Positions 9,657 to 37,083 are shown, counted from the first letter of the stretch. The stretch is DNA of 64,000 nt from an uncultured Methanosarcinales archaeon (GCA_964428395.1 CAYRYB010000006.1:8453-72452), one strand, 5' to 3'. The notes: generated from the sequence alone by a model not told the origin. Translations and numbers: made by a program.

Positions 9657-10781
9657 CTAAAACTCGTATGTGAAGGTTACATTTCCCGTATTAAAACCCT
9701 TCATAATATCGTATGCTCCTGCTCGCAAGCCAACACGATTTTTGTTTTTTAACTGATACGTTAAGCCTGCACTTGCATCTATACCGCCATACTTAACTGT
9801 TGAAGAAGTTTCTAATTCATTGGAACGATCAGATGGTTGACGACCTAAAAAGTCACCAGATTCAACGCTATTAAAACGAATTTCATATTCCTTTTGCGTA
9901 TTCTCACTTAACTTTTCAAAGAATGGTCCTGCTGCAACTGTTGCAAAAAAGTTCTTTTTTTTATTAAGAGGAAGAGAGTATGTTGCAGCTGTAGAAAACA
10001 ACGGCATTTCTTCATTGTTTTTTGTTGTAGTAACATATTCTTGAGAACTTATTTTTCCACTTGGAGAAAGACTTTTTCTTCCCATTGGATTTTTTGTTTG
10101 TCCAAGAGATTCTTGTGATGATGGCGCGTTAAGAAAATATTCTCCTTCCACTCCAAAATTTCCAACAGAAGCTCGAAGACCTAAACCATACATGTCATTA
10201 GTAAAGTAAGAAATAACTGGTCCTAAACCAAAACCTTTTTTTGCTATAGGCTCTTTTAATTTATTTTTTTTGCTTTCGTTTGTTACTGCACCATTTTTTA
10301 ACGAGTCAATAACTTGCTCGTATAACGTTTTTTTGATTACAAGACCCATAATTGTTGAGTCGCAGTACGCAGCATCATCATTAACATAGGCTCGCAAATC
10401 TCCTTCTGTTTTATCAACAGCAATTCTTTCGCGATAAATGTCAATTGAACCATCTTTTTTGAATTCCACACCAACAAGTTTTGTTCCACCAATCGCGCTT
10501 TTTTTTGGAAGTTTTGTTTTTTCAAAAAAAGCATCTACATTTTTTGTTGCAATATCTTTTGCTGAAACTACATACGTGTCCCGTGTTGCCGTTGTATCCA
10601 CTGGTTTGACAACATAAACGCCGGGTTTTGTTGGCGCTTGACCAACTTCAAGTGTTTGTAATTTGTTTTCTAAATCTTGCTTGGTTGTCGCTGCATTTTT
10701 TGAAGTTGCACAACTGTGCAAACTAAGTGCGCCAAGACCAGCGAAAATATAAGGTAAAATCATTTGATTGAGTTTTTTCAT
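9657..10781 (-). CDS. Hypothetical lipoprotein-like or beta-strand-rich protein with a C-terminal aromatic residue (OMP-like signature), probably co-transcribed with the adhesin gene
   Basis: The probable start is the internal Met MKKLNQMILPYIFAGLGALSLHSCATSKN (signal plus Cys). The C-terminus ...GLRAGAYDIMKGFNTGNVTFTYEF has alternating hydrophobic residues and a terminal Phe. Its stop codon abuts the start of the 6804-9656 gene. Confidence 0.4.
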   Translation of the reverse strand: MKKLNQMILPYIFAGLGALSLHSCATSKNAATTKQDLENKLQTLEVGQAPTKPGVYVVKPVDTTATRDTYVVSAKDIATKNVDAFFEKTKLPKKSAIGGTKLVGVEFKKDGSIDIYRERIAVDKTEGDLRAYVNDDAAYCDSTIMGLVIKKTLYEQVIDSLKNGAVTNESKKNKLKEPIAKKGFGLGPVISYFTNDMYGLGLRASVGNFGVEGEYFLNAPSSQESLGQTKNPMGRKSLSPSGKISSQEYVTTTKNNEEMPLFSTAATYSLPLNKKKNFFATVAAGPFFEKLSENTQKEYEIRFNSVESGDFLGRQPSDRSNELETSSTVKYGGIDASAGLTYQLKNKNRVGLRAGAYDIMKGFNTGNVTFTYEF

Positions 10782-11347: not shown

Positions 11348-11510
11348 TCTTTATTATCCTCCAATACATAAAGAGTTGTTCCTTTAAAGTAATAACTCTA
11401 AGTGAGCGAAATACATCATCATTTATAAACATTATTGTTTGTTGTTCCTTTTGAATGAAAACAATTTGTTCTTCAAAGGTTTTAAAAAAGAAATAAGGGA
11501 AGAAAAAAGC

Positions 11511-12593
11511 ATGGAGAGAATACTTGTAGGAGGAGGACCTATAGGCCTGTATGCTGCTTCCAGGGGCTCTAACATGGCTGTTTTTGATCAAAAAAAGCAA
11601 ATTGGATCGCCCATTCAATGCACAGGACTACTTTCTCATCAAGCACAAAAACTCCTTGATAAAAAACTTCTCAAAGAAATAACACAAAACACCATTACAA
11701 AAACAGAAATTATTGGACCAACAGCACGAGCAACCATTACGTTACGTAAAAATTATGTTATTAATAATCAATTATTCGAAGAACGCTTAGCAGATAACGT
11801 GTTACGTCAAGGCAACAAAATTCACTTAAACAAACGCTACGAAGGCTCAAAAAGCGGAAAACATCTATTTAAGGATTTAAAGACAGGTAAAAAAGAGACA
11901 TATAAAACACAAGAGCTTTTGGGAATTGACGGACCAAACTCAAACGTCAGACGCATTCATCATTGGCCCGCACAAGAACAATATATAGGTATGCAAGCAA
12001 GACTGCGCGTCAAAAAACAAGAAAATAGCATTCAATTCTTTCCTCACATAGGAGTCTACGCATGGAGCGTTCCTGAAAGCGACACCGTCGTGCGCGTTGG
12101 ACTTGCAACAAAAGGAAACGCTCAAAGACTCTTTCATGACTTTCTTAAGCGTTTTTCTGGGAAAATACTAGAGCGCTCAGGAGGACGAATTCCCCTGTAC
12201 AAACCACGATCAAAAACAGTAAAACAGCTCGCATCTTATCGCGTTGTCCTTTTGGGAGATGCCGGCGGACAAATAAAAAATACAACGGGAGGAGGATTAC
12301 TTCCCGGAATAACTGCAACAAACGAATATATCCAAAAACAAAATACGTACACGGGATTATCTCGCACACTTAGGCAAGAATTATACACCCATTTCCTGGT
12401 GCATAACCTTTTGAAAACGGCAACACGCACACAATGGGATAAAATCATTCTTTCAGCACAAAAACAACAACAATTGTTCAAAGAAATTAATAGAGATGAA
12501 ACCAGAAAAATGATAAAAACCTTTGCGAGCAACAAGACCTTTCTCTCCTATAGTCTTCTCAAACTCATAACCGGAAAAGTAAAACTATTTTGA
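11511..12593 (+). CDS. FAD-dependent geranylgeranyl reductase family oxidoreductase (candidate dolichol/polyprenol reductase)
   Basis: MERILVGGGPIGLYAASRG is a GxGxxG FAD-binding motif. Length and overall pattern match the archaeal geranylgeranyl reductase family. It sits immediately upstream of aglB. Confidence 0.55.
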   Translation: MERILVGGGPIGLYAASRGSNMAVFDQKKQIGSPIQCTGLLSHQAQKLLDKKLLKEITQNTITKTEIIGPTARATITLRKNYVINNQLFEERLADNVLRQGNKIHLNKRYEGSKSGKHLFKDLKTGKKETYKTQELLGIDGPNSNVRRIHHWPAQEQYIGMQARLRVKKQENSIQFFPHIGVYAWSVPESDTVVRVGLATKGNAQRLFHDFLKRFSGKILERSGGRIPLYKPRSKTVKQLASYRVVLLGDAGGQIKNTTGGGLLPGITATNEYIQKQNTYTGLSRTLRQELYTHFLVHNLLKTATRTQWDKIILSAQKQQQLFKEINRDETRKMIKTFASNKTFLSYSLLKLITGKVKLF

Positions 12594-12651: not shown

Positions 12652-15459
12652 ATGAGCAAAAAACATTATTCACAGCATAAAAAAGAAATAACTCATAAAA
12701 AAGAAATAGCGCCAGAAGAAACAACACAACAGCCCATTCTTAAAGAAAAACAACACAAGAAAACGAGTTGGAAACATCTACTCTTCTCAGAAACCACCTT
12801 AATTGTTCTCTTACTCCTTATCGCAATCACGATAAGTACTGTCTTTCGCATGTATCCTTCATCATTACAAACAACCAATACATGGGCACAAGCAACAATT
12901 GAAAATCAAATTAAAAGTAACGTTGCACAACAAGTAGCGCAACAATTTCCTCATTTACCACAAACGCAACGTGATGAATATGTCAATAAACAACTACAAG
13001 ATGTGTTGCAAACACAAAAAGCAACAATAGACACGCAACAAAAGCAACTTGCAACGCAATTTAAATCACGAATGCAAGATGAGCACAACAACACCTACCT
13101 TTTAGCAATAGACCCCTATGTTTGGTTATCCTACGCAAGAAATCTAGAAACCTATGGTCATTTTGGTAACGAGATTGTGAACAACACAGATTGGTATACC
13201 CTGCGAAATGGTCGATTCGGTTCAAAAGCAAATTTTCACCTTCATCCCTATCTCACCGTTCAAGTTCATAAATTTCTACGAATATTTAATCCAGATATTA
13301 CTTTAGAACGAGCAGCATTTCTTATGCCCGTTCTTATTATTATTTTAGCAATTATTGCAGCATTCTTTTTAGGAAGAAAAATATCAGGCAACGTTGCAGG
13401 ATTTGTTGCAGGACTTATTATTGCACTTAATACCGCATTATTAGGACGAACTCCTGCGGGTTTTTCAGATACTGACGCATACCTCATCTTTTTTCCCTTA
13501 CTTATCTCATGGATGTATTTAGAAGTTTTAACCAGTAAAACATGGAAACGAAGAACAATATTTTTATTACTCTCAACAGCATTTACTGTCCTCTTTTCAA
13601 AAGCATGGACGAAATGGTGGTATATTGTTAGTATTCTTATGGCCATGACAGCAATATACTTTGTGTACACCTTATACATTGAAAGGAAGAAACTCAAAAA
13701 ATTGCTGCGCAAACCAAAACAATTATTCACACAAACAAGAAGTGGACAAACTATTATAGATGTTTTAGCGTTCTTTGCAATACTACTCGTGCTCGCAAGC
13801 ATATTTTATAGCAGTGTTGGCAGTCCACAAGGATTTTTTAAACCTCTACGAGATATCATAATAAGCCCTTTGGGCGTTCTTAATGTGAAAAGCGTTGCAA
13901 CAGCAAATATTTGGCCAAACGTCTTAACAACCGTAGCAGAACTTAACGCGGGCAGTTGGGGACAAATAATAGGCTCGTTAGGTGGAAGACTATTCTTTAT
14001 CATAGGTGCTTTAGGAGTGCTTCTCACCTTCTTTTTACGAACAAAAGAAGATACTTTTGAAATACGTTACGCTGCATTACTTGTTATCTGGTTTTTTGGG
14101 TTAAGCCTTGTTGGTGTTATGAGTTCTCGATTCATAGCACTTCTTGCAGCACCGTTTGCCATTGCCTTTGGCGTATTCTTTGGCATACTTTGGACAAAGG
14201 GGTCTGAATTATTAAGTAGAGAAGTGAGCGTTCCAATGCTCGCAACAAAAATAGGAATTGCAATTATTATATTGCTCTTATTTATTGCACCAATAAAAGC
14301 AGCACATACTGTTGCATTAAACGAAGTTCCTAGCATGAATGATGGATGGTATACTAGTCTTATAACCATACAACAAAATTGTAGTGATGGCATCATTACC
14401 AGTTGGTGGGATTTTGGTCATTGGTTTACCAACATCGCGCAACGTCGCGTCACGTTTGATGGTGGTGACCAAGGAAAGAGAATTTATTGGGTTGGAAAAA
14501 GTCTCATGACCGACAATGCAACAGAAAACAAAGATATTCTTCGCATGCTTAATTGCGGACAAAACAAAGGATATGAAATACTCGCTAAAAAACTTAATGA
14601 TAGCTATCAAGCAACACAACTCATTAACAAAATTGCATACGAGACAAAATCAGAAGCAAAAGCAACATTACAACACGCTGCTCTTTCAGACAACGTTATT
14701 GTCAGCATACTCAATTATACTCATTGTAGTAATGAAGATTTACTAGATCAATATTACATTGTGTCACAAGATATGATAGGAAAATCCAACGTATGGGCAC
14801 ATTTTGGTGATTGGAATTTTAGCAAAGCATACATTTACTATTTATCAAAACATGACACCTATGATGAAGCAGTCAAGAAAATGCAAGATGAAATAGGAAT
14901 AAGTAAAGATACAGCAAACAAACTATACTTTGATGCAACCAGTTTAAACACGAACAGAGAAGTTGATACATGGATTAGTCCTTGGCCATCATACATCACC
15001 ATAAACTCTAAAGCTTGTGAAAAAGGAAACGAAACAATAACTTGCACCATTAATCAAAAAATTGGTGAACAACAAGGTCAAAGCATAATTATTGATAAAG
15101 CAATTGTACCATTGCAAAACGTTAATGAAACAAAACTTACCGTCATAGCAAGTGCTAATGGTATTGCAAGAAGTGTTGATCCCATCATTCCAAAAGCAGT
15201 TAATCTTCCTGCCAAAGATAATTTTGTGCAAACAAGGATGCCAAAAACAACTTTTCCTTATGAACTTACTATTGGAAAAACTGCAGATGGAACATATCGC
15301 GCAATACTCTCAGATAGCATTTTAGCCCGCTCAACATTCACAAAACTATTTTATTTTGATGGATTATACATGAATGACTACACAAAATTAAGTGATATAA
15401 CAACATTTAGAGGCGAGCGCATTATTGTCTATAAGGTAAACTTAACAAACAAATATTAA
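12652..15459 (+). CDS. aglB: Archaeal oligosaccharyltransferase AglB (STT3 family)
   Basis: 935 aa. A polytopic N-terminal membrane domain and a large C-terminal soluble domain. The WWDFGHW motif is the WWDYG signature of STT3/AglB/PglB. Confidence 0.8.
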   Translation: MSKKHYSQHKKEITHKKEIAPEETTQQPILKEKQHKKTSWKHLLFSETTLIVLLLLIAITISTVFRMYPSSLQTTNTWAQATIENQIKSNVAQQVAQQFPHLPQTQRDEYVNKQLQDVLQTQKATIDTQQKQLATQFKSRMQDEHNNTYLLAIDPYVWLSYARNLETYGHFGNEIVNNTDWYTLRNGRFGSKANFHLHPYLTVQVHKFLRIFNPDITLERAAFLMPVLIIILAIIAAFFLGRKISGNVAGFVAGLIIALNTALLGRTPAGFSDTDAYLIFFPLLISWMYLEVLTSKTWKRRTIFLLLSTAFTVLFSKAWTKWWYIVSILMAMTAIYFVYTLYIERKKLKKLLRKPKQLFTQTRSGQTIIDVLAFFAILLVLASIFYSSVGSPQGFFKPLRDIIISPLGVLNVKSVATANIWPNVLTTVAELNAGSWGQIIGSLGGRLFFIIGALGVLLTFFLRTKEDTFEIRYAALLVIWFFGLSLVGVMSSRFIALLAAPFAIAFGVFFGILWTKGSELLSREVSVPMLATKIGIAIIILLLFIAPIKAAHTVALNEVPSMNDGWYTSLITIQQNCSDGIITSWWDFGHWFTNIAQRRVTFDGGDQGKRIYWVGKSLMTDNATENKDILRMLNCGQNKGYEILAKKLNDSYQATQLINKIAYETKSEAKATLQHAALSDNVIVSILNYTHCSNEDLLDQYYIVSQDMIGKSNVWAHFGDWNFSKAYIYYLSKHDTYDEAVKKMQDEIGISKDTANKLYFDATSLNTNREVDTWISPWPSYITINSKACEKGNETITCTINQKIGEQQGQSIIIDKAIVPLQNVNETKLTVIASANGIARSVDPIIPKAVNLPAKDNFVQTRMPKTTFPYELTIGKTADGTYRAILSDSILARSTFTKLFYFDGLYMNDYTKLSDITTFRGERIIVYKVNLTNKY

Positions 15460-15470
15460 TGGCTTGAGCA

Positions 15471-15845
15471 ATGCGACGAAAACATAGACCCATTACAACG
15501 TCAAAGAAGAAACCATATATCTTATTAATGATTCTAAGCACTCTTTTTATTGCAAGTGGACAGTTATTATTTTCTCATGCATACAGCACACCCTCATCTC
15601 TTATTTTTTCTCTTTTACCAGTAAACATTTTTTCTCTTAGCGCAATACTTGCGTATGGGCTGGGCGCAATACTCTTTGTTCTTGCAATAGGTAAAGGCGC
15701 AGTAAGTAGCGTGTATCCTTTAAGTTCACTTTCCTATGTTTGGGCAACACTTGGCGCAATACTATTATTACATGAGCACGCCAGCATACAAAAACTTTCT
15801 ATACTTCTTATTCTTGGAGGCATCGTGCTTATCACGAGGGAATAA
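15471..15845 (+). CDS. SMR/EamA-like 4-TM half-transporter (ArnF/ArnE-like; candidate lipid-linked sugar flippase subunit)
   Basis: 124 aa with four predicted TM helices and a DMT/SMR-like pattern. Paired with the adjacent 112-aa paralogue, as in the ArnE/ArnF heterodimer. Confidence 0.45.
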   Translation: MRRKHRPITTSKKKPYILLMILSTLFIASGQLLFSHAYSTPSSLIFSLLPVNIFSLSAILAYGLGAILFVLAIGKGAVSSVYPLSSLSYVWATLGAILLLHEHASIQKLSILLILGGIVLITRE

Positions 15846-15848
15846 AAA

Positions 15849-16187
15849 ATGATGAGCATATACATAGGATTATTTTTAGCACTTCTTTCAACATTATTTG
15901 GTGCAAGCTCATCAATTATCATAAAAAAAAGTTTACAAAAAGGAATACAAAATAGCTGGAAAGCAAAAATAACACTCCTTGCTGGTTTAGGAATTATGGG
16001 AATCGGTGTTCTTATGGTTTTTATCGCGTTAAAATTTGGGGAAGTAAGTATTATTTATCCTGTCACTGCAATAACCTTTGTTTGGACAACCCTTTTTGGA
16101 AAAAAATATTTACAAGAAACAATTACCACAACAAAAATTATCGGCGTTGCTATCATAATTATCGGCGTTGCTTTGCTTACCATATAA
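15849..16187 (+). CDS. SMR/EamA-like 4-TM half-transporter (ArnE/ArnF-like; second subunit)
   Basis: 112 aa with four TM helices. Adjacent to its paralogue and to the GT2 and GT-C genes. Confidence 0.45.
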   Translation: MMSIYIGLFLALLSTLFGASSSIIIKKSLQKGIQNSWKAKITLLAGLGIMGIGVLMVFIALKFGEVSIIYPVTAITFVWTTLFGKKYLQETITTTKIIGVAIIIIGVALLTI

Positions 16188-16254
16188 CAATTACAATTAG
16201 TAATAATTAAGAAATAAATGCATAGAAAAGGTCTTGAAAAATGAGCGATAAAAA

Positions 16255-17034
16255 ATGAATAAAGAAAAAAAAGAAGATGTTTATTATAGTGTCTTTATGC
16301 CGTTTTATAATGAGGAAACGATTGTCAAAAAAAATGCGCAACGAGTGATAAAAGAATTACGCGCACTTAAAAGAACGTTCGAACTTGTCCTCATCGACGA
16401 TAACTCTACAGATGATAGTTTGCAACAAGCAACAGAGCTTGCAAAAAAAGAAAAAGAAGTAAAAATACTACACTACGAAAAAGGACCGAGTAGGCGAGAA
16501 AATCTTGCAAAAAGTTTCCTGCAAGCAAGAGGAAAAATTGTTGCGTATATGGATTATGATTTAGCAACAAGCTTAACGCATCTAAAAAGACTCTTAAACG
16601 AAGCAGAAACCTGCGATGTAGTCATAGGATCTCGCTATAAAAAAGAATCGCACTTACAACGTGAATGGTGGCGACTACTCATTAGCAAAGTGTATAACTT
16701 TACTATCCGCCTGCTTTTTGGTACACAAATAAGTGATCATCAATGCGGGTTTAAAGCGTTTCAACAAAAAACTATCAGAAAACTTGTTCGCAAATTAGGA
16801 TATGATTCCAAATTTCAACGAGGATGGTTTTGGGATGTTTCATTATTAGTATATGCAAAAAAAATGCAATTTTGTATAAAAGAAATTCCCGTGACATGGC
16901 AACCAGGGGAAAAAACAAGTTTTAGTTTTAAACGAGAACTTAAAATGATACCTCAAATACTACGTTTATACTGGCAAACAAGAAAATTATCATTTAAAAA
17001 AGTGCGAGAAAACCACTATGAAAACCATTACTAA
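16255..17034 (+). CDS. GT2 polyprenol/dolichol-phosphate sugar synthase (DPM1/ArnC/GtrB-like)
   Basis: VFMPFYNEE...LVLIDDNSTDDS...YMDYD are GT2 (GT-A) motifs. 259 aa, soluble. Confidence 0.7.
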   Translation: MNKEKKEDVYYSVFMPFYNEETIVKKNAQRVIKELRALKRTFELVLIDDNSTDDSLQQATELAKKEKEVKILHYEKGPSRRENLAKSFLQARGKIVAYMDYDLATSLTHLKRLLNEAETCDVVIGSRYKKESHLQREWWRLLISKVYNFTIRLLFGTQISDHQCGFKAFQQKTIRKLVRKLGYDSKFQRGWFWDVSLLVYAKKMQFCIKEIPVTWQPGEKTSFSFKRELKMIPQILRLYWQTRKLSFKKVRENHYENHY

Positions 17035-18517
17035 AGTAACAAAAAAGAAAACAAAAAAGACAAATAAGATTGGTCTAAGCATTACTTCTCAACAAAAAAA
17101 AACACTCAATATCCTGCTCCTTGCAGGAATCATCGTTCTCTTACTTGTGTACATAGGTAGTATTCAAAAGTTTCCTTACACGTGGGTTGATGAAGGATGG
17201 GCTGCTGAACCAGCATATAATCTCGTATATCATCATAGTTTTACCATGCCTAGTCAAACAGGATGGGCCGGTCAAGAAATTGCAACATACTCATGGCCTC
17301 CTTTCACCTATCTGGCTATTGCAAGTTCTTATCTGCTCTTTGGATTTGGCATCGTGCAAACAAGACTCGTGAGTCATGTTGCGTTACTTGCGCTTCTTTT
17401 CTTTAGCTACCTTTTTGGCAAGAAAATAACGGGCAAAAAAGAAACGGGACTTCTTACTGCGTTTCTTTTACTTGTTAATCATCTCGTCTTTTACATCTTT
17501 CACTCTCCACGACCAGACGTGTTTGCAGGACTTTTCATCCTCTTAGGCACATATGAATATTATCTTTGGAAACAAAAGCCAACCAGAAAAAATATTTTTT
17601 TATCAGGATTATTCTTTGGATTAAGCGTAGCTAGTCATGCCATTGGCGCTATCAGTGCCGTGGGAGTTGGTATTTTACTTCTTGTGCAAAAAACAAACTA
17701 TACTAAAAAGTTGCAATCACTTGGTTGGTATATTTTAGGAGGTTTGCTTATTGCACTTCCTTATGGAGCATATATCCTTAAACATCCAAAACTGTTCTTA
17801 CTACAACTCTTTGGCATGCACGAAACAACATCTGCATCTTTTCTAAAAGAACATCTCTTAAGAGAGTATGTACGATATGCTAACACATTACATTTTTATT
17901 GGCATTTTTTTCTCCTCCTTTTCATCATCGGTATTGTTGCTTTATTTCTACAAAAAAAAACAAAAGAGCTCGGCTATCTTGCTGTACTCAATATTATCGG
18001 TCTTGCCATCCTGCTTCCTAACAAATCAGCAAGTCAATATCTCATAGCAATACTTCCGTTGGCAACTCTTGGATTTGTACTGCTTTTTGACAAACAAATA
18101 ATTCAGAAAAAATTTCTACGCGTTGGAATATATATCGTTTTAGCTGGTTGCATTATTACAGGACTCGGAGCGCAAACGTTCATTGTTTATCAGCATCATA
18201 GCTATCAACCGTATACTGTACAAGAATCCTTTTTGCCAATCATACAAAACGCAAGCGTTATTGCACCATTAACCTATTATTATTACTTTCCTAAGCAACT
18301 CATATCACTTGATAATATTGAAACGCAAATGAAACTATTTAATAAGACGCCAGGATACCTTGCTCGAGAGTTTAATGCAACATACATAATTATAGACTCG
18401 CAAAATCCAGAAAAAACAACACCTATACAAACATTTCTTGAAACGCATACAACAAAAGTCAAAGAAATAAAAGAAGGATACAATATCTCACTTTATAAAA
18501 TAGAAGAAAAGACATAA
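17018..18517 (+). CDS. GT-C fold glycosyltransferase of the ArnT/PMT (GT39/GT83) type, a lipid-phosphate-sugar-dependent transferase
   Basis: 499 aa with about 11 TM helices. The first extracytoplasmic loop carries YTWVDEGW (a DE motif like PMT/ArnT). It overlaps the GT2 gene's stop. Confidence 0.6.
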   Translation: MKTITKVTKKKTKKTNKIGLSITSQQKKTLNILLLAGIIVLLLVYIGSIQKFPYTWVDEGWAAEPAYNLVYHHSFTMPSQTGWAGQEIATYSWPPFTYLAIASSYLLFGFGIVQTRLVSHVALLALLFFSYLFGKKITGKKETGLLTAFLLLVNHLVFYIFHSPRPDVFAGLFILLGTYEYYLWKQKPTRKNIFLSGLFFGLSVASHAIGAISAVGVGILLLVQKTNYTKKLQSLGWYILGGLLIALPYGAYILKHPKLFLLQLFGMHETTSASFLKEHLLREYVRYANTLHFYWHFFLLLFIIGIVALFLQKKTKELGYLAVLNIIGLAILLPNKSASQYLIAILPLATLGFVLLFDKQIIQKKFLRVGIYIVLAGCIITGLGAQTFIVYQHHSYQPYTVQESFLPIIQNASVIAPLTYYYYFPKQLISLDNIETQMKLFNKTPGYLAREFNATYIIIDSQNPEKTTPIQTFLETHTTKVKEIKEGYNISLYKIEEKT

Positions 18518-18565: not shown

Positions 18566-19219
18566 TTGAACGTCGCTGTCATCATTCCAGCTTATAATGA
18601 AGCAAAACATATTTCTGCTATTGTAGAGCGAACGAAAAAGATAATTTCTGATGTTATTGTCGTAGATGATGGTAGTATTGATGATACTGCAGAACTCGCT
18701 TACAAAGAAGGAGCAATAATACTTCGTCATCTTGTGAACTTAGGTAAGGGCGCAGCAGCAAAAACGGGGTGTGATTATGCCTACAAAACCAATCATGATG
18801 TTCTTATACTCATGGATGCAGACGGACAACACTTACCTGAAGATATTCCTCGATTTCTTAGCGCGCTACAAAACAAGGACATTGTTTTTAGTTATAGAAC
18901 CTCAAAACAACAAGCACCATTTCTTTTACGCGTTGGAAACTGGGGATTAAGTTTTCTGAGCAACATTCTTTTTCACATAGCAATTTATGACACTCAATCA
19001 GGGTTTCGCGCGTTCACAAAAAAAGCATATCGACAAATTCGTTGGAGCGCAACAGATTATGCTATGGAATCAGAAATGATTTATAGATCAAGAGGTTTGC
19101 GATTTACACAAATAGCTATTGAGCGCATCTATTTAGATAATGTGAAAGGAACAACCGTTCCTCTTGGATTCTCAATTGGCTGGCAAATGATAAAGTGGAA
19201 ATTCTTTGGAGGTATATAA
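18566..19219 (+). CDS. GT2 glycosyltransferase (GtrB/DPM1-like), probable TTG start
   Basis: VAVIIPAYNEAKHI...VVDDGSIDDT...LMDADGQH. GT2 with the DXD motif. Confidence 0.65.
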   Translation: MNVAVIIPAYNEAKHISAIVERTKKIISDVIVVDDGSIDDTAELAYKEGAIILRHLVNLGKGAAAKTGCDYAYKTNHDVLILMDADGQHLPEDIPRFLSALQNKDIVFSYRTSKQQAPFLLRVGNWGLSFLSNILFHIAIYDTQSGFRAFTKKAYRQIRWSATDYAMESEMIYRSRGLRFTQIAIERIYLDNVKGTTVPLGFSIGWQMIKWKFFGGI

Positions 19220-19222
19220 AAA

Positions 19223-19600
19223 ATGATTATAGGCATACAATTATTAGGAATTCTCTTTGGTATCATTATGATATATTTTTCAATTCTTTATTATAAAAAG
19301 AAAAATTACAATAAAAAATCACTTACGCTTTGGCTCATAACATGGTTTGCAGTAATTATCATTTTTGCAATACCAGAAATCATTTATCGGTTTATGGACT
19401 TGTTAGCAATACAGCGAACAGCAGATTTTTTTACTGCAGGAGCAATCATTTTTCTCACAACTATCGTCTTTTATCTTTATACTGTTGTTAAAAAAACTCA
19501 ATATAAAATGGAACATCTTGTTAGAGAACTTGCCATCAAAGAAGCAAAACAACAACCTATTGCAAAAAGGAACACTAAGAGAACAACAACTAAAAAATGA
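19223..19600 (+). CDS. Small membrane protein (3-4 TM) partnered with GT2 genes, possibly DUF2304/GtrA-like
   Basis: 125 aa, hydrophobic, with a basic C-terminal tail. Sandwiched between two GT2 genes with ATGA-type overlaps. Confidence 0.35.
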   Translation: MIIGIQLLGILFGIIMIYFSILYYKKKNYNKKSLTLWLITWFAVIIIFAIPEIIYRFMDLLAIQRTADFFTAGAIIFLTTIVFYLYTVVKKTQYKMEHLVRELAIKEAKQQPIAKRNTKRTTTKK

Positions 19601-20637
19601 ATAAAAAACGCAAACAAGAAGTTCTCGTGTCTATTATTGTTGCTGTTCGCAACGAAGAAGAACACATAGAAGAATGCATACAATCACTTCTAAAGCAAAC
19701 CTTTACCGATTTTGAGATACTTCTTATTGATGGAGAAAGCAATGATAAAACGCTTCAAATACTACAACAATACGCTAAAAAATATCCTCTCAAAATTCGC
19801 TCGTTTAGCAATAGAGAACAAAAAGTTGCGCAAGGAAGAAACATTGGCTTTGCCCATGCAAAAGGAGTATACATTGGATTTCTTGACGGCCATAGCTATG
19901 CCAATAAAAATTGGCTTAAAACACTTATAGATGCCTTAGAATCCTCTAATGAAACTGTTGGTGGAATTGGCAGTGTTCATTATAATGCCGATAAAAAACT
20001 TTTCACCATAGCAACAACACTTGTTATGAGTAGCATACTTGGCGGAGGAGGAACAAGCTATAAACCAGGAAAGAAACTAAGAGAAGTGCCAACAGCTTAT
20101 GCCTGTTTGTATAAAAAAGAAGCACTCTTAGCAATAAAAAAAGGAGAAGAATATTATAATCCTTATTTTATTAAAGGGCAAGATGCGGAAATGAACATTC
20201 GCCTTAAGAAAGCAGGCTATAAAATCCTTCGGCATCCAAAAGCCAAAACATATTACTACAAACGACCAAATCTTAAAGCATTCTGGCGACAAATGGTCAA
20301 TGCAGGATTCTGGCGAGTAAAAATCATAAAGCATCATCCTGATACTATAAGAAAAACATGGACTGTGTTTGCACCAGCAATATTCTTTACAATTAGCGTT
20401 CTATTACTCTTGTTTGGATTTATTCATCCTCTTTTTGCAATAGGTGGAATTGGATTATTAGGAACATATATTGGAATTAGTATTTTATTTGGTTTAAGTC
20501 AAATAATTAAAAAAAGAAAAGTATATTATGGTATAACAACAATATTACTTTTAGCTTTACATGTAAGCTATACTATAGGACTCATCAAAGGAATTTTTAA
20601 ACGAAATATAAACATAATTGACCGGGTGAAACAATGA
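19597..20637 (+). CDS. GT2 glycosyltransferase with a C-terminal membrane anchor
   Basis: VSIIVAVRNEEEHIEECIQSLLKQTF...ILLIDGESND. GT2. The C-terminal ~90 aa are hydrophobic. Confidence 0.65.
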   Translation: MNKKRKQEVLVSIIVAVRNEEEHIEECIQSLLKQTFTDFEILLIDGESNDKTLQILQQYAKKYPLKIRSFSNREQKVAQGRNIGFAHAKGVYIGFLDGHSYANKNWLKTLIDALESSNETVGGIGSVHYNADKKLFTIATTLVMSSILGGGGTSYKPGKKLREVPTAYACLYKKEALLAIKKGEEYYNPYFIKGQDAEMNIRLKKAGYKILRHPKAKTYYYKRPNLKAFWRQMVNAGFWRVKIIKHHPDTIRKTWTVFAPAIFFTISVLLLLFGFIHPLFAIGGIGLLGTYIGISILFGLSQIIKKRKVYYGITTILLLALHVSYTIGLIKGIFKRNINIIDRVKQ

Positions 20638-21674
20638 ATATCTACAATTTCTTAGGATTTTTTCTTAGACAAAAAAAAACAAAGCATCAAAAGATTACCC
20701 ACTTAAAAAAGATCTTAGTTATTAATCTGCAAGGTATGGGCGATGTATTAATGACCACGCCAATCATTCATTCTCTAGCAAAACACGCAACAATAGATGT
20801 TTTGGTTTTTGGGAAGCTAAAATCAATCATACTTAAAGAAAATAAGGATGTTAACAAAACTATTTTGTTTCAAGGTCTAAAAACCATCAAAACAATTAAC
20901 AAGAAAAGCTACGATCTTATATTTTTAGCCCATGGAGCAGGACTTAAATCAGGAATTTTTTTCAAATTTCTTAAAGCTAAACATAAAGCAAGTCATCATT
21001 ATACCTTAGGTGGATGGAAAACAGCTTTTGGTGCAGATATTGTGCTACCATTAAGTCCAAAAATGCATCGAATAGATGAAAATAAAAAATTATTACAAGA
21101 ATTAAACTTTCCTTTAGAAAAACAAAAATATCAATATACTATTCCAACAAAAAGTAAGCAACAAATTGAAGAATTTATACAAAAAAATAACTTAACACAT
21201 AAAAAAATAATCTGTATTCATCCTGGAGGAGACAAAAACAATCCTCAAAAAAGATTTTCACTCAAAGAATACGTACGACTTTCTAATTCACTTCCAGAAA
21301 TATATGAAATAATTTTCTTATTGGGGCCTGATGAAATTGAATTACAAGAAAAACTTAAAAAACTCATTAGCAAAAATAATCAACAAATTTTTACTGATAA
21401 CATCCAAAATACTGCTGCATTAATTGCCCGTAGCGAGCTTCTCATTCATTCAGATTCAGGCTTAGGTCATCTCGCGGCAGCTGTTGGAACACCAACAAGA
21501 ACAATAGTTGGACCAACTAATTGGTATAGAACAAGACCATATGGACCAAAAGATGTGCTAATTAAAAGTAAATATTGTCCAGAGCCAAAAGAAGAATATA
21601 TGGAAAAAGGATTTATTAGAAAGAAAAATTACTTTCCAAAAAAAATCAATAGTGAAGACATTCTCCTTAATTAA
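20634..21674 (+). CDS. GT9 family glycosyltransferase (heptosyltransferase-like)
   Basis: LVINLQGMGDVLMTTPIIHSL and HSDSGLGHLAAAVGTPTRTIVGPT match the conserved GT9 motifs. Confidence 0.6.
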   Translation: MNIYNFLGFFLRQKKTKHQKITHLKKILVINLQGMGDVLMTTPIIHSLAKHATIDVLVFGKLKSIILKENKDVNKTILFQGLKTIKTINKKSYDLIFLAHGAGLKSGIFFKFLKAKHKASHHYTLGGWKTAFGADIVLPLSPKMHRIDENKKLLQELNFPLEKQKYQYTIPTKSKQQIEEFIQKNNLTHKKIICIHPGGDKNNPQKRFSLKEYVRLSNSLPEIYEIIFLLGPDEIELQEKLKKLISKNNQQIFTDNIQNTAALIARSELLIHSDSGLGHLAAAVGTPTRTIVGPTNWYRTRPYGPKDVLIKSKYCPEPKEEYMEKGFIRKKNYFPKKINSEDILLN

Positions 21675-22819
21675 AAGAAATCAGTTGGTTTCTTTTTTTG
21701 TAAAACTTTAGGGGTGAAAGGCTCAAGTGTTTGAAATTGACGCGGATCAAGACCTATTTTTGTTCGCTCAAATTGTTTAAATTTTTTAAATTTAGGATTT
21801 CTTCTAATAGCCAAGAGTAATGCAACATTAAAATACCAATCAGAATGAATATATAATTTATTTCTAAAACCCTTTTTGATTAACCAAACACCATATTCTA
21901 AAGCACTGTTAAGAATTGACTCATCTAAAGAAGAATATTGATGAATAACTTCTAAATATAACCAATTGCAAAAATGATAATGCGGTCCAGGTTGATGTAG
22001 CGCTCGTTTTAGAAATCCTCTTTTTGTTAGAAATGAAGCTTGTTTAGCCATTTTTCTAAATGAGAAAAAAGCCATCGGCGTCGGTAAACATCCTAATAAG
22101 CGAGGACGGCCAATTAGGTATCTATCAAAACAAAAATAGTTGTTCTTGTCCTTTTTTTCAAAAAGATAGTTTAAGTACGCAACGCCTTTTTTAGCTCCTT
22201 CTGCATACTTATTTATTTTTGTATATTGACTAACAAGAAAAAGAGCCACAATTGTTGATGCATGTGTATTTAATACGAACTCATTTTTTCCTGAATTTAG
22301 TTCCAAAGTATCATGAGGAAACCAAAATAATGTTTCTCCTCTGATTTTTTCTTCAAAACGAGATGCTAAAAGAAAATCAGCAGCCTTTTTTGCTGCTGTA
22401 AGAAATTTTTGCTCCTTGAATAAATTGTAGGCGTTAATGAGAGTAAAAATTGCGGCATCGTGAAGCGCGAATTGATCTTCATTATTGTGCTCATTATGAT
22501 TATATTTTCCGTTTTTCTCAAGAGAATTCACGCAAAATAAAGCCGCTCGGTATGCAAGTTCTTTTGCCTGTTCATTTTTCTTGTTTTTGAGATATTCTAC
22601 TTGTGCAATATTGAATATGCTTTCTGCTAAATTATGATTAGCAACAGCCCGATACGGCTTTCTAAAGAAGAATTTATGAAAAATATGAAGCAGAGGATTG
22701 TTAATTATAGATTTCACATAATCAGGAGGCATACGAACAAAGCCTTTATCGTCAAAATACCGCTCAAGCTCATCAAGAGAAGAAATCTTTTTGTAGGAAT
22801 GAAGAAAATAAGAGTTCAT
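21671..22819 (-). CDS. Hypothetical protein (382 aa) in the glycan locus
   Basis: Long ORF convergent with the GT9 gene. No motif recognised. Confidence 0.35.
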   Translation of the reverse strand: MNSYFLHSYKKISSLDELERYFDDKGFVRMPPDYVKSIINNPLLHIFHKFFFRKPYRAVANHNLAESIFNIAQVEYLKNKKNEQAKELAYRAALFCVNSLEKNGKYNHNEHNNEDQFALHDAAIFTLINAYNLFKEQKFLTAAKKAADFLLASRFEEKIRGETLFWFPHDTLELNSGKNEFVLNTHASTIVALFLVSQYTKINKYAEGAKKGVAYLNYLFEKKDKNNYFCFDRYLIGRPRLLGCLPTPMAFFSFRKMAKQASFLTKRGFLKRALHQPGPHYHFCNWLYLEVIHQYSSLDESILNSALEYGVWLIKKGFRNKLYIHSDWYFNVALLLAIRRNPKFKKFKQFERTKIGLDPRQFQTLEPFTPKVLQKKKPTDFF

Positions 22820-27368: not shown

Positions 27369-28859
27369 TTAGAAGTCAACAGACCTTCTAATAAATTCTT
27401 TTGCTTCTTTTAAATCAAAAAGACCTAAGAAATAACAAACAAGTAAATAGAAAGCATATGCCAAAATCAGAATAAATGTTACTTCAAAAAATAAAGGAAA
27501 GTGAAATACTTGTTTTAAGAAAAAAATTGTCAACAAGAAAAAAGTCCCTGCAAAAAAAGCTTTCAACCAAGAAAACCAAGGCAAGCGAACCTTAGTTAAA
27601 AAAGAAAGTTTTTTTGCAGAAAGAATCAAAAGAATAAAATAAGATATTGCTGTTGTTAGAGCTGCACCTACTAAGCCCCAAACAGGAATTAAAAAAACAT
27701 TTGCGATTGCATTAAAAGTTGCCGCTATAAGAAAAATCTTCATGATGAAACGAGGATGACCGAGCGCAATAAGAATATTATTTATGATGTGTGCAATAAT
27801 AAAAAAGAGAATACCAATTAGTAGTATCCTAAAAGGAACAACGCCTGAAACATATTTTCTGCCAAAAGTTAGAACCAAGAACTGATTTGCAAAAGCAAAA
27901 AACGTAAGCATCAAAGGGAGTGTCAAGACAAGAATATATTTGTAAATCAACTGAATTCCTTTTTTTATCTCGAAGAGTTTTTTTTCTGCATGCAACTCTG
28001 AGAACAAAGGAAAAAGAATTGTTGATACGCTTGACCCAAGAATAAGAAATATCATTGCTGTTGGGAGCACTACATTGTAAATTCCAACGGCCGTTAGACC
28101 CATAAAAAAAGTTATGAGTAAAACATCAAGTTGATTTATTACCATGTTTCCAAATCCCCCAAACATAATGGGCGCTCCAAAGGAAACAAGTTTTTTTAGA
28201 GTAAACCAAACTTTGTTTGTTCTATACTTAAAAATAAACCAAAATTTTCTAGAAAAAAATACCATCACAAAAAAGGATAAAAGAGAACCAAAACCAAAGC
28301 CCCAAACAGGAGCAAGAATTCCTGCATGAAGATGAAAAAATAGCAACGTAAATACTAAAACACCAGAAACTCTTATTGGCTCTGCCCAAGAATATGCTTT
28401 TTCTTTTTGAAAACCCCTTAATAAGAGCAATGGAATAGCTCCCAACATGTGCACTACAAAATAGAAAAGGAAAGAAACAATCACTTTTTTAGCCAAAATA
28501 CTTGAAAAGTAATGCACCGAAAGAAATTGAGCGCTAAAAAACAATACTAACGAAAGAAAGGTGGTTGTAAATAAAAAGAATATAAATTGAGCAACAATAA
28601 TTGTTTTTACTTGATTATAATCTTTCTTGGTGACTGAAGCAACAACAAATCGAACAGAAGCTTCAGAAACTCCTAAAACTCGAAAAACATTAACAAAGAG
28701 AAGCAAAGAAAGCACTGCAAAAACAAGGCCATACTCAGCGACAGATAACTCTCTTGCAACATAAATTCTGAAAGCATAAGTGACTATACTTGCAATAAGA
28801 CCTGTCAAAAATATCAAAAATGATCCCCGTATTACTTTTCTGATATAATCAACCATCAC
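27369..28859 (-). CDS. Wzx-like oligosaccharide/polysaccharide flippase (MOP superfamily)
   Basis: 496 aa, with about 12-14 TM helices throughout. Lies within the glycosyltransferase locus. Confidence 0.55.
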   Translation of the reverse strand: MMVDYIRKVIRGSFLIFLTGLIASIVTYAFRIYVARELSVAEYGLVFAVLSLLLFVNVFRVLGVSEASVRFVVASVTKKDYNQVKTIIVAQFIFFLFTTTFLSLVLFFSAQFLSVHYFSSILAKKVIVSFLFYFVVHMLGAIPLLLLRGFQKEKAYSWAEPIRVSGVLVFTLLFFHLHAGILAPVWGFGFGSLLSFFVMVFFSRKFWFIFKYRTNKVWFTLKKLVSFGAPIMFGGFGNMVINQLDVLLITFFMGLTAVGIYNVVLPTAMIFLILGSSVSTILFPLFSELHAEKKLFEIKKGIQLIYKYILVLTLPLMLTFFAFANQFLVLTFGRKYVSGVVPFRILLIGILFFIIAHIINNILIALGHPRFIMKIFLIAATFNAIANVFLIPVWGLVGAALTTAISYFILLILSAKKLSFLTKVRLPWFSWLKAFFAGTFFLLTIFFLKQVFHFPLFFEVTFILILAYAFYLLVCYFLGLFDLKEAKEFIRRSVDF

Positions 28860-34707: not shown

Positions 34708-37083
34708 TTAATGCATATCGCAGCCACCAGTAAAACCACAACCAGCATCACACTCGGTGCAACCGCCAACCTTAATCATTGTACCTTTCTTACACATCGG
34801 ACAACGATTGCCAACTTCAGAACCATACACAACACCTTCTTCGTCTTCCTCATCATTTTCACCTTTTACAGAAGATGAATCTTCTACAGGTAAATCTTTC
34901 ATAGACGAAGAATCCTGCGACGTTGTCTCAGCTGGTGGAGCTGATTGCTTATTAGACGAAGCGTTAGGTGTGTGATCTGCAACGTTTTTTTCTCCGGTTG
35001 TAACGTCCGTTGATAAAATTTGTTCATCTCTGGAACCATCACGATAAATAGTTACTCCCTTGCAACCCAAATCAAAAGCGTACTCATACAATTTCATCGT
35101 TTGTTCTACTGTAAAATCCGCAGGAACATTCGCCGTCTTTGAAATTGAAGAATCAGTCCAGCGCTGAATGGTTGCCTGCAATTTTACATGATCTTCTGGA
35201 CCCATGCTCATCGCACTCACAAAAAAAGAAGGTAGTGAGCCATCTGGATTTTTCTTATATTCTTTCACCAAATCAATTTCGACCTCATGAAAACCAAGAC
35301 GACTCTGCTGATAATATTTAAACGCATAAAAAGGTTCAATACCTGTTGATGTTCCCAGCATAGAACCAACCGTACCTGTTGGTGCCTGTGTTAAAAGGGC
35401 AACATTACGAATACCTTTTTTTCGAATAGCTTCATGCACTTGAACAGGCATATGCTTCATAAAACCGCTTTGTAAAAACTTGTCTGTGACAAATTCAGGA
35501 AAGGAACCTTTCTCCTCAGCAATATCTGTTGAGGTTAAATACGCCCGAACAGCAATACGTTTGTAAAGCTTATCAACAAACTCGTTTGCCTTATCACTAC
35601 CAAACGGCAAACGCATACGCACTAAGACTTCAGCAAGGCCAAGCGTTCCGCAACCAACACGACGCTCTTTTAACTGATTCTGTTTAATCTCATCAAAAAT
35701 GTATGGTGTTAAATCAATAATATCATCTAAGAAACGAACAAGTGTTGCTGTTGCATCCTCAAGCGCATCCCAATCAAAGTCAAACAAAGGACCAATCTCA
35801 TCCTCGCCTGTCTTATATACAAAATTATTCAATGCCAAATGCGCAAGATTACAAACACCCCATGCGGGAAGACCTTGTTCTCCACAAGGATTTGTACAAA
35901 TAATATTATTATAATAATAAGAATTACTTAAGTCATTATACCTTCCTGAAAAAACAACGCCTGGCTCAGCACTTTTCCACGCAGAACTAATAAGTCTACT
36001 CCATAAATCCTTTGCGCGAACTGATTTATGCACAACTGTTTTACGCCCTTTTTTCTTCCAGCCAAGTAAGTCGCCATCCCATTCTTTATCATAAATCTCT
36101 TTTGTTTTCTTATCGGCAATGTCAGGAAATTCTAACTGCCATTCCCTGTCCTGTTTTACTGCATCCATAAACTCATTAGAAACCAGAACAGAAAGATTCG
36201 CATTATCTAAAAAACCTATTTGATGCTTCGCGTCAATAAATTCTTCAATATCAGGATGCCAATCAGCAAGCATGAGCATGAGCGCACCTCTACGCGAACC
36301 CCCCTGCTCTATAAGACCTGTTGCGTTAGAATATAAATTTCCCCACGAAACAGAACCACTCGATTTACCATTTACTCCTTTAATGTATGCATACCGAGGA
36401 CGAAGTGTACTTAAATTAATACCAACACCACCCCCACGACTAAAAATTTCTACCATTTGATACAGTGTATCTTTAATAATTGATTTTCTTGAATCACCAG
36501 GAGAAGGAATAACAAAACAATTATACAATGTTAAATTAGATGTGTAGTTTCCCGTCTCATCAACATTGGCTCCCGCCATTATCCGTCCAGCTGGCTGAAT
36601 ATAACCCTTTAAAAGCGTTTGCGTAAATTTTTCTTTATAGAAGGCAGAGTCTTTTTCCACGCTTGCTGTGGCTCGGCCAACTCGTTCATATGCATCATAA
36701 ATGCTCTCTGTAGGTTTATCACATTGTAACTTACTTACCAAAAGAGGTTCTTTACTTTCAGCATACACGCCAGTAATCATGCGAAGTTTCCACTCAGAAC
36801 CCTGACTTGCAACAATAATTCCCAAATCCTTTTTTGGATACTTAGGATGCATTTTTGAAACTACAACAACCAAATCGCCAATAGCAATATTTTCTCGCAA
36901 ATCCTTAATGGCATATCTATCCATAAAAATAATAAGACCCATTTCCTTTAGGAATGTTGAGTTGTTAAGAATATCAATTGCCTTGGCGTTTAATAAAACA
37001 CCTTCCTTTTTTAGTTGACGAACTAAGGGAGCATCAGTTGTTGCTCGCTGTAAATTTGATCCAGAATGTTCATTTGGTTTCAT
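34708..37083 (-). CDS. nrdJ: Class II (adenosylcobalamin-dependent) ribonucleotide reductase NrdJ, catalytically canonical, with a C-terminal zinc ribbon
   Basis: TNPCGEQGLPAWGVCNLAHL (N-x-C-x-E thiyl-radical motif and second redox Cys). NCFVIPSPGDS (first redox Cys). GGGVG. C-terminal CPMCKK...CTECDAGCG after an acidic, Ser-rich linker. Confidence 0.85.
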   Translation of the reverse strand: MKPNEHSGSNLQRATTDAPLVRQLKKEGVLLNAKAIDILNNSTFLKEMGLIIFMDRYAIKDLRENIAIGDLVVVVSKMHPKYPKKDLGIIVASQGSEWKLRMITGVYAESKEPLLVSKLQCDKPTESIYDAYERVGRATASVEKDSAFYKEKFTQTLLKGYIQPAGRIMAGANVDETGNYTSNLTLYNCFVIPSPGDSRKSIIKDTLYQMVEIFSRGGGVGINLSTLRPRYAYIKGVNGKSSGSVSWGNLYSNATGLIEQGGSRRGALMLMLADWHPDIEEFIDAKHQIGFLDNANLSVLVSNEFMDAVKQDREWQLEFPDIADKKTKEIYDKEWDGDLLGWKKKGRKTVVHKSVRAKDLWSRLISSAWKSAEPGVVFSGRYNDLSNSYYYNNIICTNPCGEQGLPAWGVCNLAHLALNNFVYKTGEDEIGPLFDFDWDALEDATATLVRFLDDIIDLTPYIFDEIKQNQLKERRVGCGTLGLAEVLVRMRLPFGSDKANEFVDKLYKRIAVRAYLTSTDIAEEKGSFPEFVTDKFLQSGFMKHMPVQVHEAIRKKGIRNVALLTQAPTGTVGSMLGTSTGIEPFYAFKYYQQSRLGFHEVEIDLVKEYKKNPDGSLPSFFVSAMSMGPEDHVKLQATIQRWTDSSISKTANVPADFTVEQTMKLYEYAFDLGCKGVTIYRDGSRDEQILSTDVTTGEKNVADHTPNASSNKQSAPPAETTSQDSSSMKDLPVEDSSSVKGENDEEDEEGVVYGSEVGNRCPMCKKGTMIKVGGCTECDAGCGFTGGCDMH

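Follow-up and report, generated by a model that had tools for sequence, protein, structure and literature searches.

What do four genes lying immediately behind an archaeal oligosaccharyltransferase gene do together? The question is raised by a 64,000-nt stretch of DNA from an uncultured Methanosarcinales archaeon (GCA_964428395.1, CAYRYB010000006.1:8453-72452), referred to below as the window, whose own numbering is used for all coordinates. Here aglB is followed by genes for two small EamA-type membrane proteins (half 1 and half 2), a family 2 glycosyltransferase (GT2a) and a multi-spanning glycosyltransferase of the GT-C type. An initial annotation, made by a model from the sequence alone, had proposed that they constitute a complete module that makes a lipid-phosphate-linked monosaccharide, flips it and transfers it on the outer face of the membrane. 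Our analysis bears out the component assignments and their linkage, and leaves the flipping step at the level of a prediction. On the whole we regard it as fairly probable that the genes directly downstream of aglB encode a three-component extracytoplasmic module, in which a dolichyl phosphate (Dol-P)-linked sugar would be made, flipped and transferred outside. The genes concerned are the following:

12652-15459, + strand, AglB, an STT3-type oligosaccharyltransferase of 935 aa (Pfam STT3)
15471-15845, + strand, EamA half 1, 124 aa, predicted N-in, the ArnF-like orientation
15849-16187, + strand, EamA half 2, 112 aa, predicted N-out, the ArnE-like orientation
16255-17034, + strand, GT2a, a polyprenyl-phosphate GT2 resembling AglD, DPM1, ArnC and GtrB, 259 aa (Pfam GT2)
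17018-18517, + strand, GT-C, ArnT/PMT-like, 499 aa (Pfam PMT_2 and PMT)

Our list of open reading frames (ORFs) returned the four genes behind aglB at exactly the positions at which they had first been described, all on the + strand. With a second GT2 gene (GT2b) and its DUF2304 partner, to which we return below, they make a run of seven co-directional + strand genes headed by aglB, with successive spacings of 11, 3, 67, -17 (an overlap), 48 and 3 nt. AglB itself is identified by Pfam STT3 (E=2.4e-29), STT3-PglB_core (E=2e-4) and, at residue 585, the motif WWDFG.

The assignment of GT2a to the Dol-P-sugar synthase type is supported at the level of the family, from which its chemistry would follow. 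It matches PF00535 with 90.6 bits (cutoff 23.3; E=1.4e-25), and its closest solved relatives in PDB are ArnC (9hwj, 1.1e-11), Pyrococcus furiosus DPMS (5mlz, 2.2e-11) and GtrB (5ekp, 5.1e-11), all of them polyprenyl-phosphate monosaccharide synthases; the DPM1/ArnC-type label that it had been given is therefore upheld. Across 34 orthologs D100-x-D102 and D161-HQCGFK are invariant, and the latter aligns with GDYGCMLR of ArnC. By hydropathy GT2a has no hydrophobic or transmembrane (TM) segment, and its C-terminal stretch is basic and hydrophobic; human DPM1 is TM-less as well and requires DPM2/DPM3. Many homologs of about 235-240 aa are 40-51% identical to GT2a. They come mostly from metagenome-assembled genomes (MAGs) of DPANN archaea, the best of them from Woesearchaeota, Nanoarchaeota and Nanoarchaeia MAGs, and some are labelled AglD by JGI. 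Judged by these best homologs, the organism carrying the module is most likely a DPANN archaeon.

The GT-C protein scores above cutoff with both PF13231 (PMT_2; 41.5 bits, cutoff 26.1) and PF02366 (PMT; 28.0 bits, cutoff 22.7). Its AlphaFold2 (AF2) model is of high quality (predicted local distance difference test, pLDDT, 91.3; predicted TM-score, pTM, 0.91), and a Foldseek search with it retrieved ArnT (5ezm) first (E=3.1e-8, TM-score 0.60), followed by STT3, ALG12, PglB, AglB, AftA, ALG9 and Pmt4. The STT3 and AglB structures among these matches place AglB and the GT-C protein in a common superfamily. When the GT-C family profile was aligned with E. coli ArnT by hhalign (96.3% probability, 315 columns), VDEGWAAEP came to lie over PDETRYAEI. 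Both the fold and the ArnT/PMT-like DE loop that had been ascribed to the protein are thus confirmed. The DE motif (residues 58-59, encoded by nt 17189-17194) belongs to the first outer loop, which follows TM1. Among 50 homologs P53, D58, H207, F260, Q263, R286 and P347 are at least 90% conserved, R165 is invariant and E59 is the majority residue, giving a post-TM1 consensus of PxxxxDExW; the aspartate aligned to the DE of ArnT thus belongs to a conserved loop. Because ten Lys/Arg residues fall within residues 1-30, ahead of TM1, the DE loop is predicted to face the outside, in agreement with the topology originally anticipated for it. A soluble alpha/beta domain (residues ~398-499) closes the protein. 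Its homologs are distant, with 884 found at E<=1e-3 among 1.84 billion representatives and none exceeding about 34% identity. A word-indexed search of 5.8 billion proteins for close homologs returned only the query itself, and a sequence search of PDB gave no match. The lineage is thinly sampled in sequence data.

How tightly are these two enzymes linked elsewhere? We scanned one genome per GTDB species for relatives of GT2a and found more than 582, spanning DPANN, Bathyarchaeia, Archaeoglobaceae, Methanomicrobia and several bacterial phyla. The best 80 loci (67 unfused and 13 fused, see below) were annotated with purpose-built hidden Markov models (HMMs). A PMT_2-type GT-C gene lies within 150 nt of the unfused GT2a ortholog in 30 of 67 loci and within 5 kb in 41 of 67. 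Given homology and this conserved adjacency, a functional coupling of GT2a with GT-C appears very likely. A scan of metagenomes with poor patterns contributed one uninformative locus of 1.2 kb (L089).

In 13 of the 80 loci the GT2a ortholog is fused to a C-terminal flippase-like domain (LPG_synthase_TM, PF03706/TIGR00374), which is the AglD architecture, and in 4 further loci of the 80 the same domain is encoded by an adjoining separate gene. The fused proteins, ORFs of about 525-535 aa that begin near position 10000 of their loci in L043, L052, L053, L060-L062, L064, L066, L069, L071, L077, L078 and L087, belong to Archaeoglobaceae and to several unclassified MAGs ('uncultured archaeon'). No GT-C gene of the type defined by our GT-C family alignment (A1) occurs within 5 kb in any of the 13, and a PF03706-like domain is absent from the entire window.

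The window has the two EamA halves between aglB and GT2a. The two are paralogous, with 28% of 92 aligned residues identical, and each has four hydrophobic segments according to hydropathy and alignment. Their lengths, the 3-nt gap between their genes and their opposite Lys/Arg bias reproduce the size and pairing of ArnE/ArnF, to which they had been likened. With Pfam EamA (PF00892, cutoff 28.2), half 2 reaches 40.0 bits and so passes the cutoff, which half 1, at 17.8 bits, does not, and when E. coli MG1655 was used for calibration the same asymmetry was seen between ArnE (40.9 bits) and ArnF (16.7 bits). The first description of the small proteins as SMR/EamA-like stands as regards a four-TM, EamA/ArnE-like protein and falls as regards SMR, the family of small multidrug resistance proteins, since in the Pfam scan neither half matched PF00893 at E<=0.01; E. 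coli ArnE itself scores 25.6 bits with that model. The best NCBIfam family for both halves is ArnE (half 2, E=1.5e-11; half 1, E=2.4e-8). ArnF gives 23.8 and 23.0 bits, missing its cutoff of 99, with E=8.2e-5 for half 1. A profile built from eight archaeal halves, half 2 among them, aligned with E. coli ArnE over its full length (hhalign; 97.6% probability, E=3e-12, 102 columns), weakly with E. coli ArnF (33%) and with EmrE in TM4 only (15.6%). We conclude that the halves are related to ArnE and are not its orthologs.

The conservation extends to individual motifs. AxGQ in TM1, YP(L/M)xSLx(F/Y)(V/I)W in TM3, an LxE turn and GxxxIxxG in TM4 are common to the aligned proteins; half 1 and E. coli ArnE have in common AxGQ and YPLxSLxYVW, and the conserved YPxxxxxxxW of TM3, which keeps the switch Tyr and the Trp, aligns with AYPMLSLNFVW of ArnE. 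TM1 of both halves is free of Asp and Glu. An acidic residue in TM1 is the proton and substrate site of coupled SMRs and is usually missing from lipid SMRs, which have another residue in place of the central Glu and keep the Tyr switch (PMC9574504). According to the same review, Arg/Lys biases are opposite in more than 95% of SMR pairs encoded side by side (PMC9574504). In the window the Lys/Arg bias is +7 in half 1 and -6 in half 2, compared with +2 in E. coli ArnF and -7 in ArnE; because the signs are opposite, as in ArnE/ArnF and in paired SMRs, the halves are expected to insert oppositely and to form an antiparallel heterodimer. From the 5.8-billion-protein word index half 2 retrieved a single protein of 56% identity, encoded on a contig of 1.25 kb, and half 1 had no match in a sequence search of PDB.

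The order aglB, EamA pair, GT2 recurs in the closest relatives of the window (the first of the loci, L001, is the same contig as the window). L002 has the C-terminus of AglB, two EamA halves and GT2a in this order, and its half 2 is 56% identical to that of the window. In L006, from a Nanoarchaeia MAG (L007 is near-identical), the order is AglB, EamA, EamA, GT2b, DUF2304, EamA, EamA, GT2a, a flavoprotein, a GT4 and a PMT_2 GT-C, the last on the opposite strand and 2.5 kb away. The Lys/Arg biases of these pairs are +2/-10 in L002 and +3/-7 and 0/-7 in L006. The pairs of L002 and L006/L007 are thus flanked by aglB and Dol-P-sugar-synthase-type GT2 genes, which links them to glycosylation and speaks against generic transporters without such a link. 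A Micrarchaeota locus (L025) has a single half, of near-zero Lys/Arg bias, directly before GT2a. In a Woesearchaeota locus (L023) AglB and GT2a are accompanied by a PMT_2 GT-C, and EamA genes are missing. Likeness to ArnE, opposite topology and the few tight links to GT2 genes of the Dol-P-sugar-synthase type together suggest that the pair serves as a flippase for a lipid-linked sugar, to which we give a little better than an even chance. Other candidate sites were set aside: weak matches to our EamA-half HMM in the Bathyarchaeia loci L051 and L068 (E~6e-5) were discarded, the L051 protein having no Pfam match, and two small ORFs before GT2a in L090 proved to be non-membrane proteins spanning an assembly gap.

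Taken together, these features suggest the following scheme. On the cytoplasmic face GT2a would take a single sugar off its nucleotide donor and place it on dolichyl phosphate, in the manner of ArnC, DPM1, GtrB and AglD. An antiparallel, ArnE/ArnF-like heterodimer of the EamA halves might then carry the Dol-P-sugar to the outer leaflet. Some flippase would be needed because of the membrane topology, and the recurrent fusion of the GT2a family to a flippase-like domain supports such a need. Finally, GT-C, for which fold and motif are in place, would use its outward DE loop to pass the sugar to an extracellular acceptor. Because aglB is close by in four genomes, we favour a protein-bound N-glycan as the presumed acceptor, as for AglS; the main alternative, direct O-glycosylation of Ser/Thr, would be equally compatible with a PMT-like enzyme.

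Several observations weigh against this scheme, most of them touching the flippase. Both halves fall far short of the equivalog cutoff of NCBIfam ArnE (44.4 and 34.2 bits, cutoff 92), and for half 2 the generic EamA score is almost as high (40.0 vs 44.4 bits). The AF2 monomer of half 2 shows four helices, with a pLDDT as low as 65. An EamA pair was found beside a GT2 gene in only four independent genomes, and only 1 of the 80 GT2a-anchored GTDB loci contains an EamA half at a distance of up to 2 kb. This marks the pair as lineage-restricted, with few cases behind the association. A 67-nt AT-rich gap separates it from GT2a in the window, GT2b could be its real partner, and the same island contains a Wzx-type gene. 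As to GT-C, NCBIfam gave one weak match (the LIC_10190 family) and none to archaeal glycosylation families. The wider surroundings of the module are as follows:

11439-12593, + strand, flavoprotein of the geranylgeranyl-reductase family (NCBIfam GG-red-SF, E=7.3e-33, below cutoff)
18566-19219, + strand, GT2b, PpgS/AglJ-like, 217 aa (Pfam GT2, NCBIfam)
19223-19600, + strand, small DUF2304 membrane protein, partner of GT2b, 125 aa (Pfam DUF2304)
19597-20637, + strand, GT2 with C-terminal TM segments, continuing the block
20634-21674, + strand, GT9, lipopolysaccharide-heptosyltransferase-like (Pfam, 2.4e-24)
21671-22819, - strand, D-glucuronyl C5-epimerase-like gene of the same glycosylation island
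27369-28859, - strand, Wzx/MOP-type flippase candidate outside the module (Pfam Polysacc_synt, E=4.9e-26; MurJ and MatE weaker)

The Wzx/MOP-type gene modifies one point of the original proposal. A split flippase was said to be used rather than a Wzx-type protein; the ArnE-like split pair is there, and so is a Wzx-type gene, so that the pair represents an addition and not a replacement.

GT2b and its neighbour confirm the second pair of a GT2 and a small membrane protein that had been noticed at 18566-19600. GT2b matches PF00535 with 75.7 bits, and its NCBIfam matches, all below threshold, are PpgS (E=1.1e-31), AglJ (E=3.9e-25) and dolichyl-phosphate hexose transferase (E=3.6e-17). The DUF2304 protein (70.2 bits in Pfam) has three hydrophobic segments. 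The pairing, which resembles PpgS/Rv3632 and GacI/GacJ, is kept in L006/L007, and in L006 an EamA pair of its own directly precedes the GT2b ortholog. By homology GT2b and DUF2304 probably represent a further synthase of Dol-P-sugar, belonging to the PpgS/AglJ type and acting in the same pathway or at the start of N-glycan assembly. The pair may initiate N-glycans as AglJ does or may supply a second donor for flipping.

Could the EamA pair be something other than a lipid flippase? A first alternative makes it a small-molecule transporter of the drug/metabolite transporter (DMT) kind, whose substrate might for instance be a metabolite, nucleotide sugar or cation. GT2a and GT-C would still be coupled, and flipping would be left to a Wzx-type or other protein or would be spontaneous or scramblase-mediated. 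The nearly equal EamA and ArnE scores fit this idea, as do weaker matches to NIPA Mg transporters and to a sugar-transport family, and the majority of loci with GT2a and GT-C contain no EamA half. For the archaeal short EamA proteins (arCOG03426/03427) the survey of Makarova et al. obtained no clue from genomic context (PMC5898192). However, the pair of every relative directly precedes a GT2 of the Dol-P-sugar-synthase type, L006 having two pairs and two such GT2s. Moreover, the profile match to ArnE covers the full length, whereas that to EmrE is partial and of low probability, and TM1 of both halves is without an acidic residue, as is usual in lipid SMRs (PMC9574504). We consider a small-molecule transporter unlikely.

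Alternatively, the pair may flip a lipid-linked sugar for a different client, namely the Dol-P-linked precursor of N-glycans for AglB or the product of GT2b, leaving GT2a and GT-C as a separate unit. Distances agree with this arrangement, as the pair is 11 nt from aglB and 67 nt from GT2a. AglJ-type enzymes initiate Dol-P-linked N-glycans, and it is GT2b that holds the stronger match of this type (3.9e-25); in L006 it is likewise GT2b-DUF2304, and not GT2a, that follows the first pair. Against this, the pair of L002, the second pair of L006 and the single half of L025 all directly precede GT2a orthologs. The cargo of known ArnE/F-type flippases consists of monosaccharide-phosphate polyprenols, and for oligosaccharides a Wzx-type gene is available. 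Service to AglB or GT2b thus seems quite unlikely to be the pair's main role.

A third explanation concerns the enzymes. GT2a might extend a lipid-linked glycan in the cytoplasm, with GT-C acting as a polymerase- or ligase-like enzyme or as a further protein glycosyltransferase, one with a lipid-linked oligosaccharide as donor. The GT-C fold suits users of either Dol-P-monosaccharides or Dol-PP-oligosaccharides (STT3 and PglB rank high in Foldseek), and the NCBIfam matches of GT2a, headed by PgfS and ArnC, all fall far below the equivalog cutoffs with many GT2 families scoring. Yet the three best solved relatives of GT2a are all monosaccharide synthases, some of its orthologs have the AglD architecture with the fused flippase-like domain, and its tight adjacency to GT-C across phyla is what a donor-maker and a donor-user would show. 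The PMT_2/ArnT-like class uses polyprenyl-phosphate monosaccharides. An extender role is, in our estimate, very unlikely. Chance co-location of the genes is ruled out by the recurring gene order in independent genomes.

Returning to the make-flip-transfer module, we compared it with known systems, beginning with the Arn core of E. coli and Salmonella. Homologs of ArnC (GT2a), ArnE (the halves) and ArnT (GT-C) are present in clustered genes, and the flippase is likewise split into paralogs of opposite Lys/Arg bias. In contrast, the host is an archaeon, the carrier is presumably dolichyl phosphate, and the module stands beside aglB and not in a lipid A modification operon. The sugar-tailoring genes ArnA/B/D are missing, the TM helices at the C-terminus of ArnC have no counterpart in GT2a, lipid A is excluded as acceptor, and the proteins, which miss the curated cutoffs, are distant relatives and not orthologs of the Arn proteins.

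With AglD/AglR/AglS of Haloferax volcanii the module shares its overall logic (PMC3871713), some homologs of GT2a are named AglD by JGI, and orthologs of it in other archaea have the AglD-type PF03706 fusion. It differs in that GT2a has no membrane domain and that an ArnE/F-like pair takes the place of the Wzx-like AglR or of the C-terminal domain of AglD. Furthermore, the aglD gene of Haloferax lies apart from the agl cluster, whereas the module of the window abuts aglB. A closer archaeal precedent is the neighbourhood of arCOG00897 (AglD-like glycosyltransferase), arCOG00563 (PMT/STT3-like) and arCOG00899 (MprF-like flippase), exemplified by MJ_1079/MJ_1080 and described by Makarova, Galperin and Koonin in 2015, who also predicted the C-terminal domain of AglD to be an MprF-like flippase (PMC5898192). 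Our neighbourhood data recovered the conserved GT2 and GT-C of this arrangement independently (30 of 67 adjacent, 13 of 80 fused). The difference is that the window and its close relatives have the short EamA pair in place of the PF03706 domain.

In bacteria, three-component systems consist of a GT2 or other lipid-phosphate-sugar synthase, a small flippase and a GT-C (PMC11127046). GtrB/GtrA/Gtr*, CsbB/GtcA/YfhO, GacI/GacJ/GacL and Citrobacter ORF15/ORF14/ORF12 follow the same plan as the module, and ORF14, too, is a four-TM protein, of EmrE/ArnE-like type. The module has no GtrA-family protein, and the acceptors of those bacterial systems are polysaccharides or teichoic acids of bacteria.

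The scheme is thus already known, from bacterial Arn-type systems and from the archaeal AglD-like neighbourhoods (PMC5898192), and the module is a plausible archaeal counterpart and not a new kind of system. What would be new, and modestly so, is the apparent non-orthologous substitution of the flippase component; our literature search found no account of ArnE/F-like pairs in archaeal glycosylation loci. One AglD-like GT2 family has two alternative partners, an MprF-like domain fused to it or a pair of the ArnE/F-like kind. This alternation amounts to a natural substitution and supports a flippase role for both. The module also provides the first genomic-context clue for the archaeal short EamA proteins, which the arCOG survey left unassigned (PMC5898192). 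If the scheme is true, some DPANN archaea complete their surface glycans outside the cell with the three protein families of the bacterial Arn pathway. For archaea and eukaryotes alike, the passage of Dol-P-sugars through membranes has yet to be explained (PMC12992685), and a small two-gene flippase candidate is for that reason a convenient target for reconstitution. Since the scheme itself is well established, the gain is incremental.

Weak, sub-threshold matches to Pfam TMEM234, a eukaryotic orphan four-TM family of the DMT clan, were obtained with half 2 (E=4e-4), with L025:9532-9921 (1.3e-5) and with E. coli ArnE (L088:6558-6893, 1.1e-4). The ER translocator of Dol-P-Man and Dol-P-Glc is still unknown (PMC12992685, PMC9333335). 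The boldest extension of our scheme would make the short EamA pair a dedicated archaeal flippase of Dol-P-monosaccharides, interchangeable with the MprF-like domain of AglD, and TMEM234 the homologous ER translocator of Dol-P-Man/Dol-P-Glc; we hold this to be a long shot.

A flavoprotein of about 420 aa, of the amine-oxidase superfamily, often adjoins GT2a orthologs and is absent from the window. It was found at L006:8711-9979, L003:5494-6735, L004:1549-2853, L025:8254-9531, L030:10693-11976, L041:10699-11994, L056:8697-10016, L080:8720-9991 and L091:6714-7988, and in L041 and L080 it sits between GT2a and GT-C. It matches Pfam Amino_oxidase, NCBIfam PRK07233 ('hypothetical protein', 456 bits) and, weakly at its N-terminus, UDP-galactopyranose mutase, and it might serve to modify the sugar, either as such or once linked to lipid. 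Two further neighbours of GT2a orthologs, both on the opposite strand (L023:10720-12144, - strand, 474 aa; L091:4426-5907, - strand, 493 aa), have about eight hydrophobic segments and D-x-x-DY after TM1. Neither has a Pfam match (for L091, none in the precomputed record), and they may represent an undescribed GT-C-like family. GT9 genes, too, neighbour GT2a orthologs, in L091 and L092.

Upstream of aglB, at 58 nt and on the same strand, lies the gene of the geranylgeranyl-reductase-family flavoprotein, which is not found at this place in L006; its product may saturate the polyprenol or dolichol carrier. Farther along the island there are methyltransferases and additional GT2 and GT4 genes, besides the C5-epimerase-like and Wzx/MOP-type genes listed above. 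A scan for promoters and terminators, made with bacterial-type models on this archaeal window, gave counts equal to the shuffled expectation. The window is chromosomal, because it also encodes SecY, gyrase A, RNase J, ribonucleotide reductase and one tRNA-Leu, and its contig turns up again in a Logan assembly and as a 95-kb NCBI MAG contig. Its GC content is low (about 0.28-0.38) except at positions 1-2000, where it is 0.47; the ORFs 240-1439 and 1603-2184 have no Pfam match, and no rRNA or other Rfam family was found in that region. The barrel domain of the ribonucleotide reductase large subunit occurs in two consecutive - strand ORFs, 34708-37083 (1.7e-114) and 37245-39035 (2.4e-111), which could reflect a duplication or a single gene broken by an intein or a frameshift.

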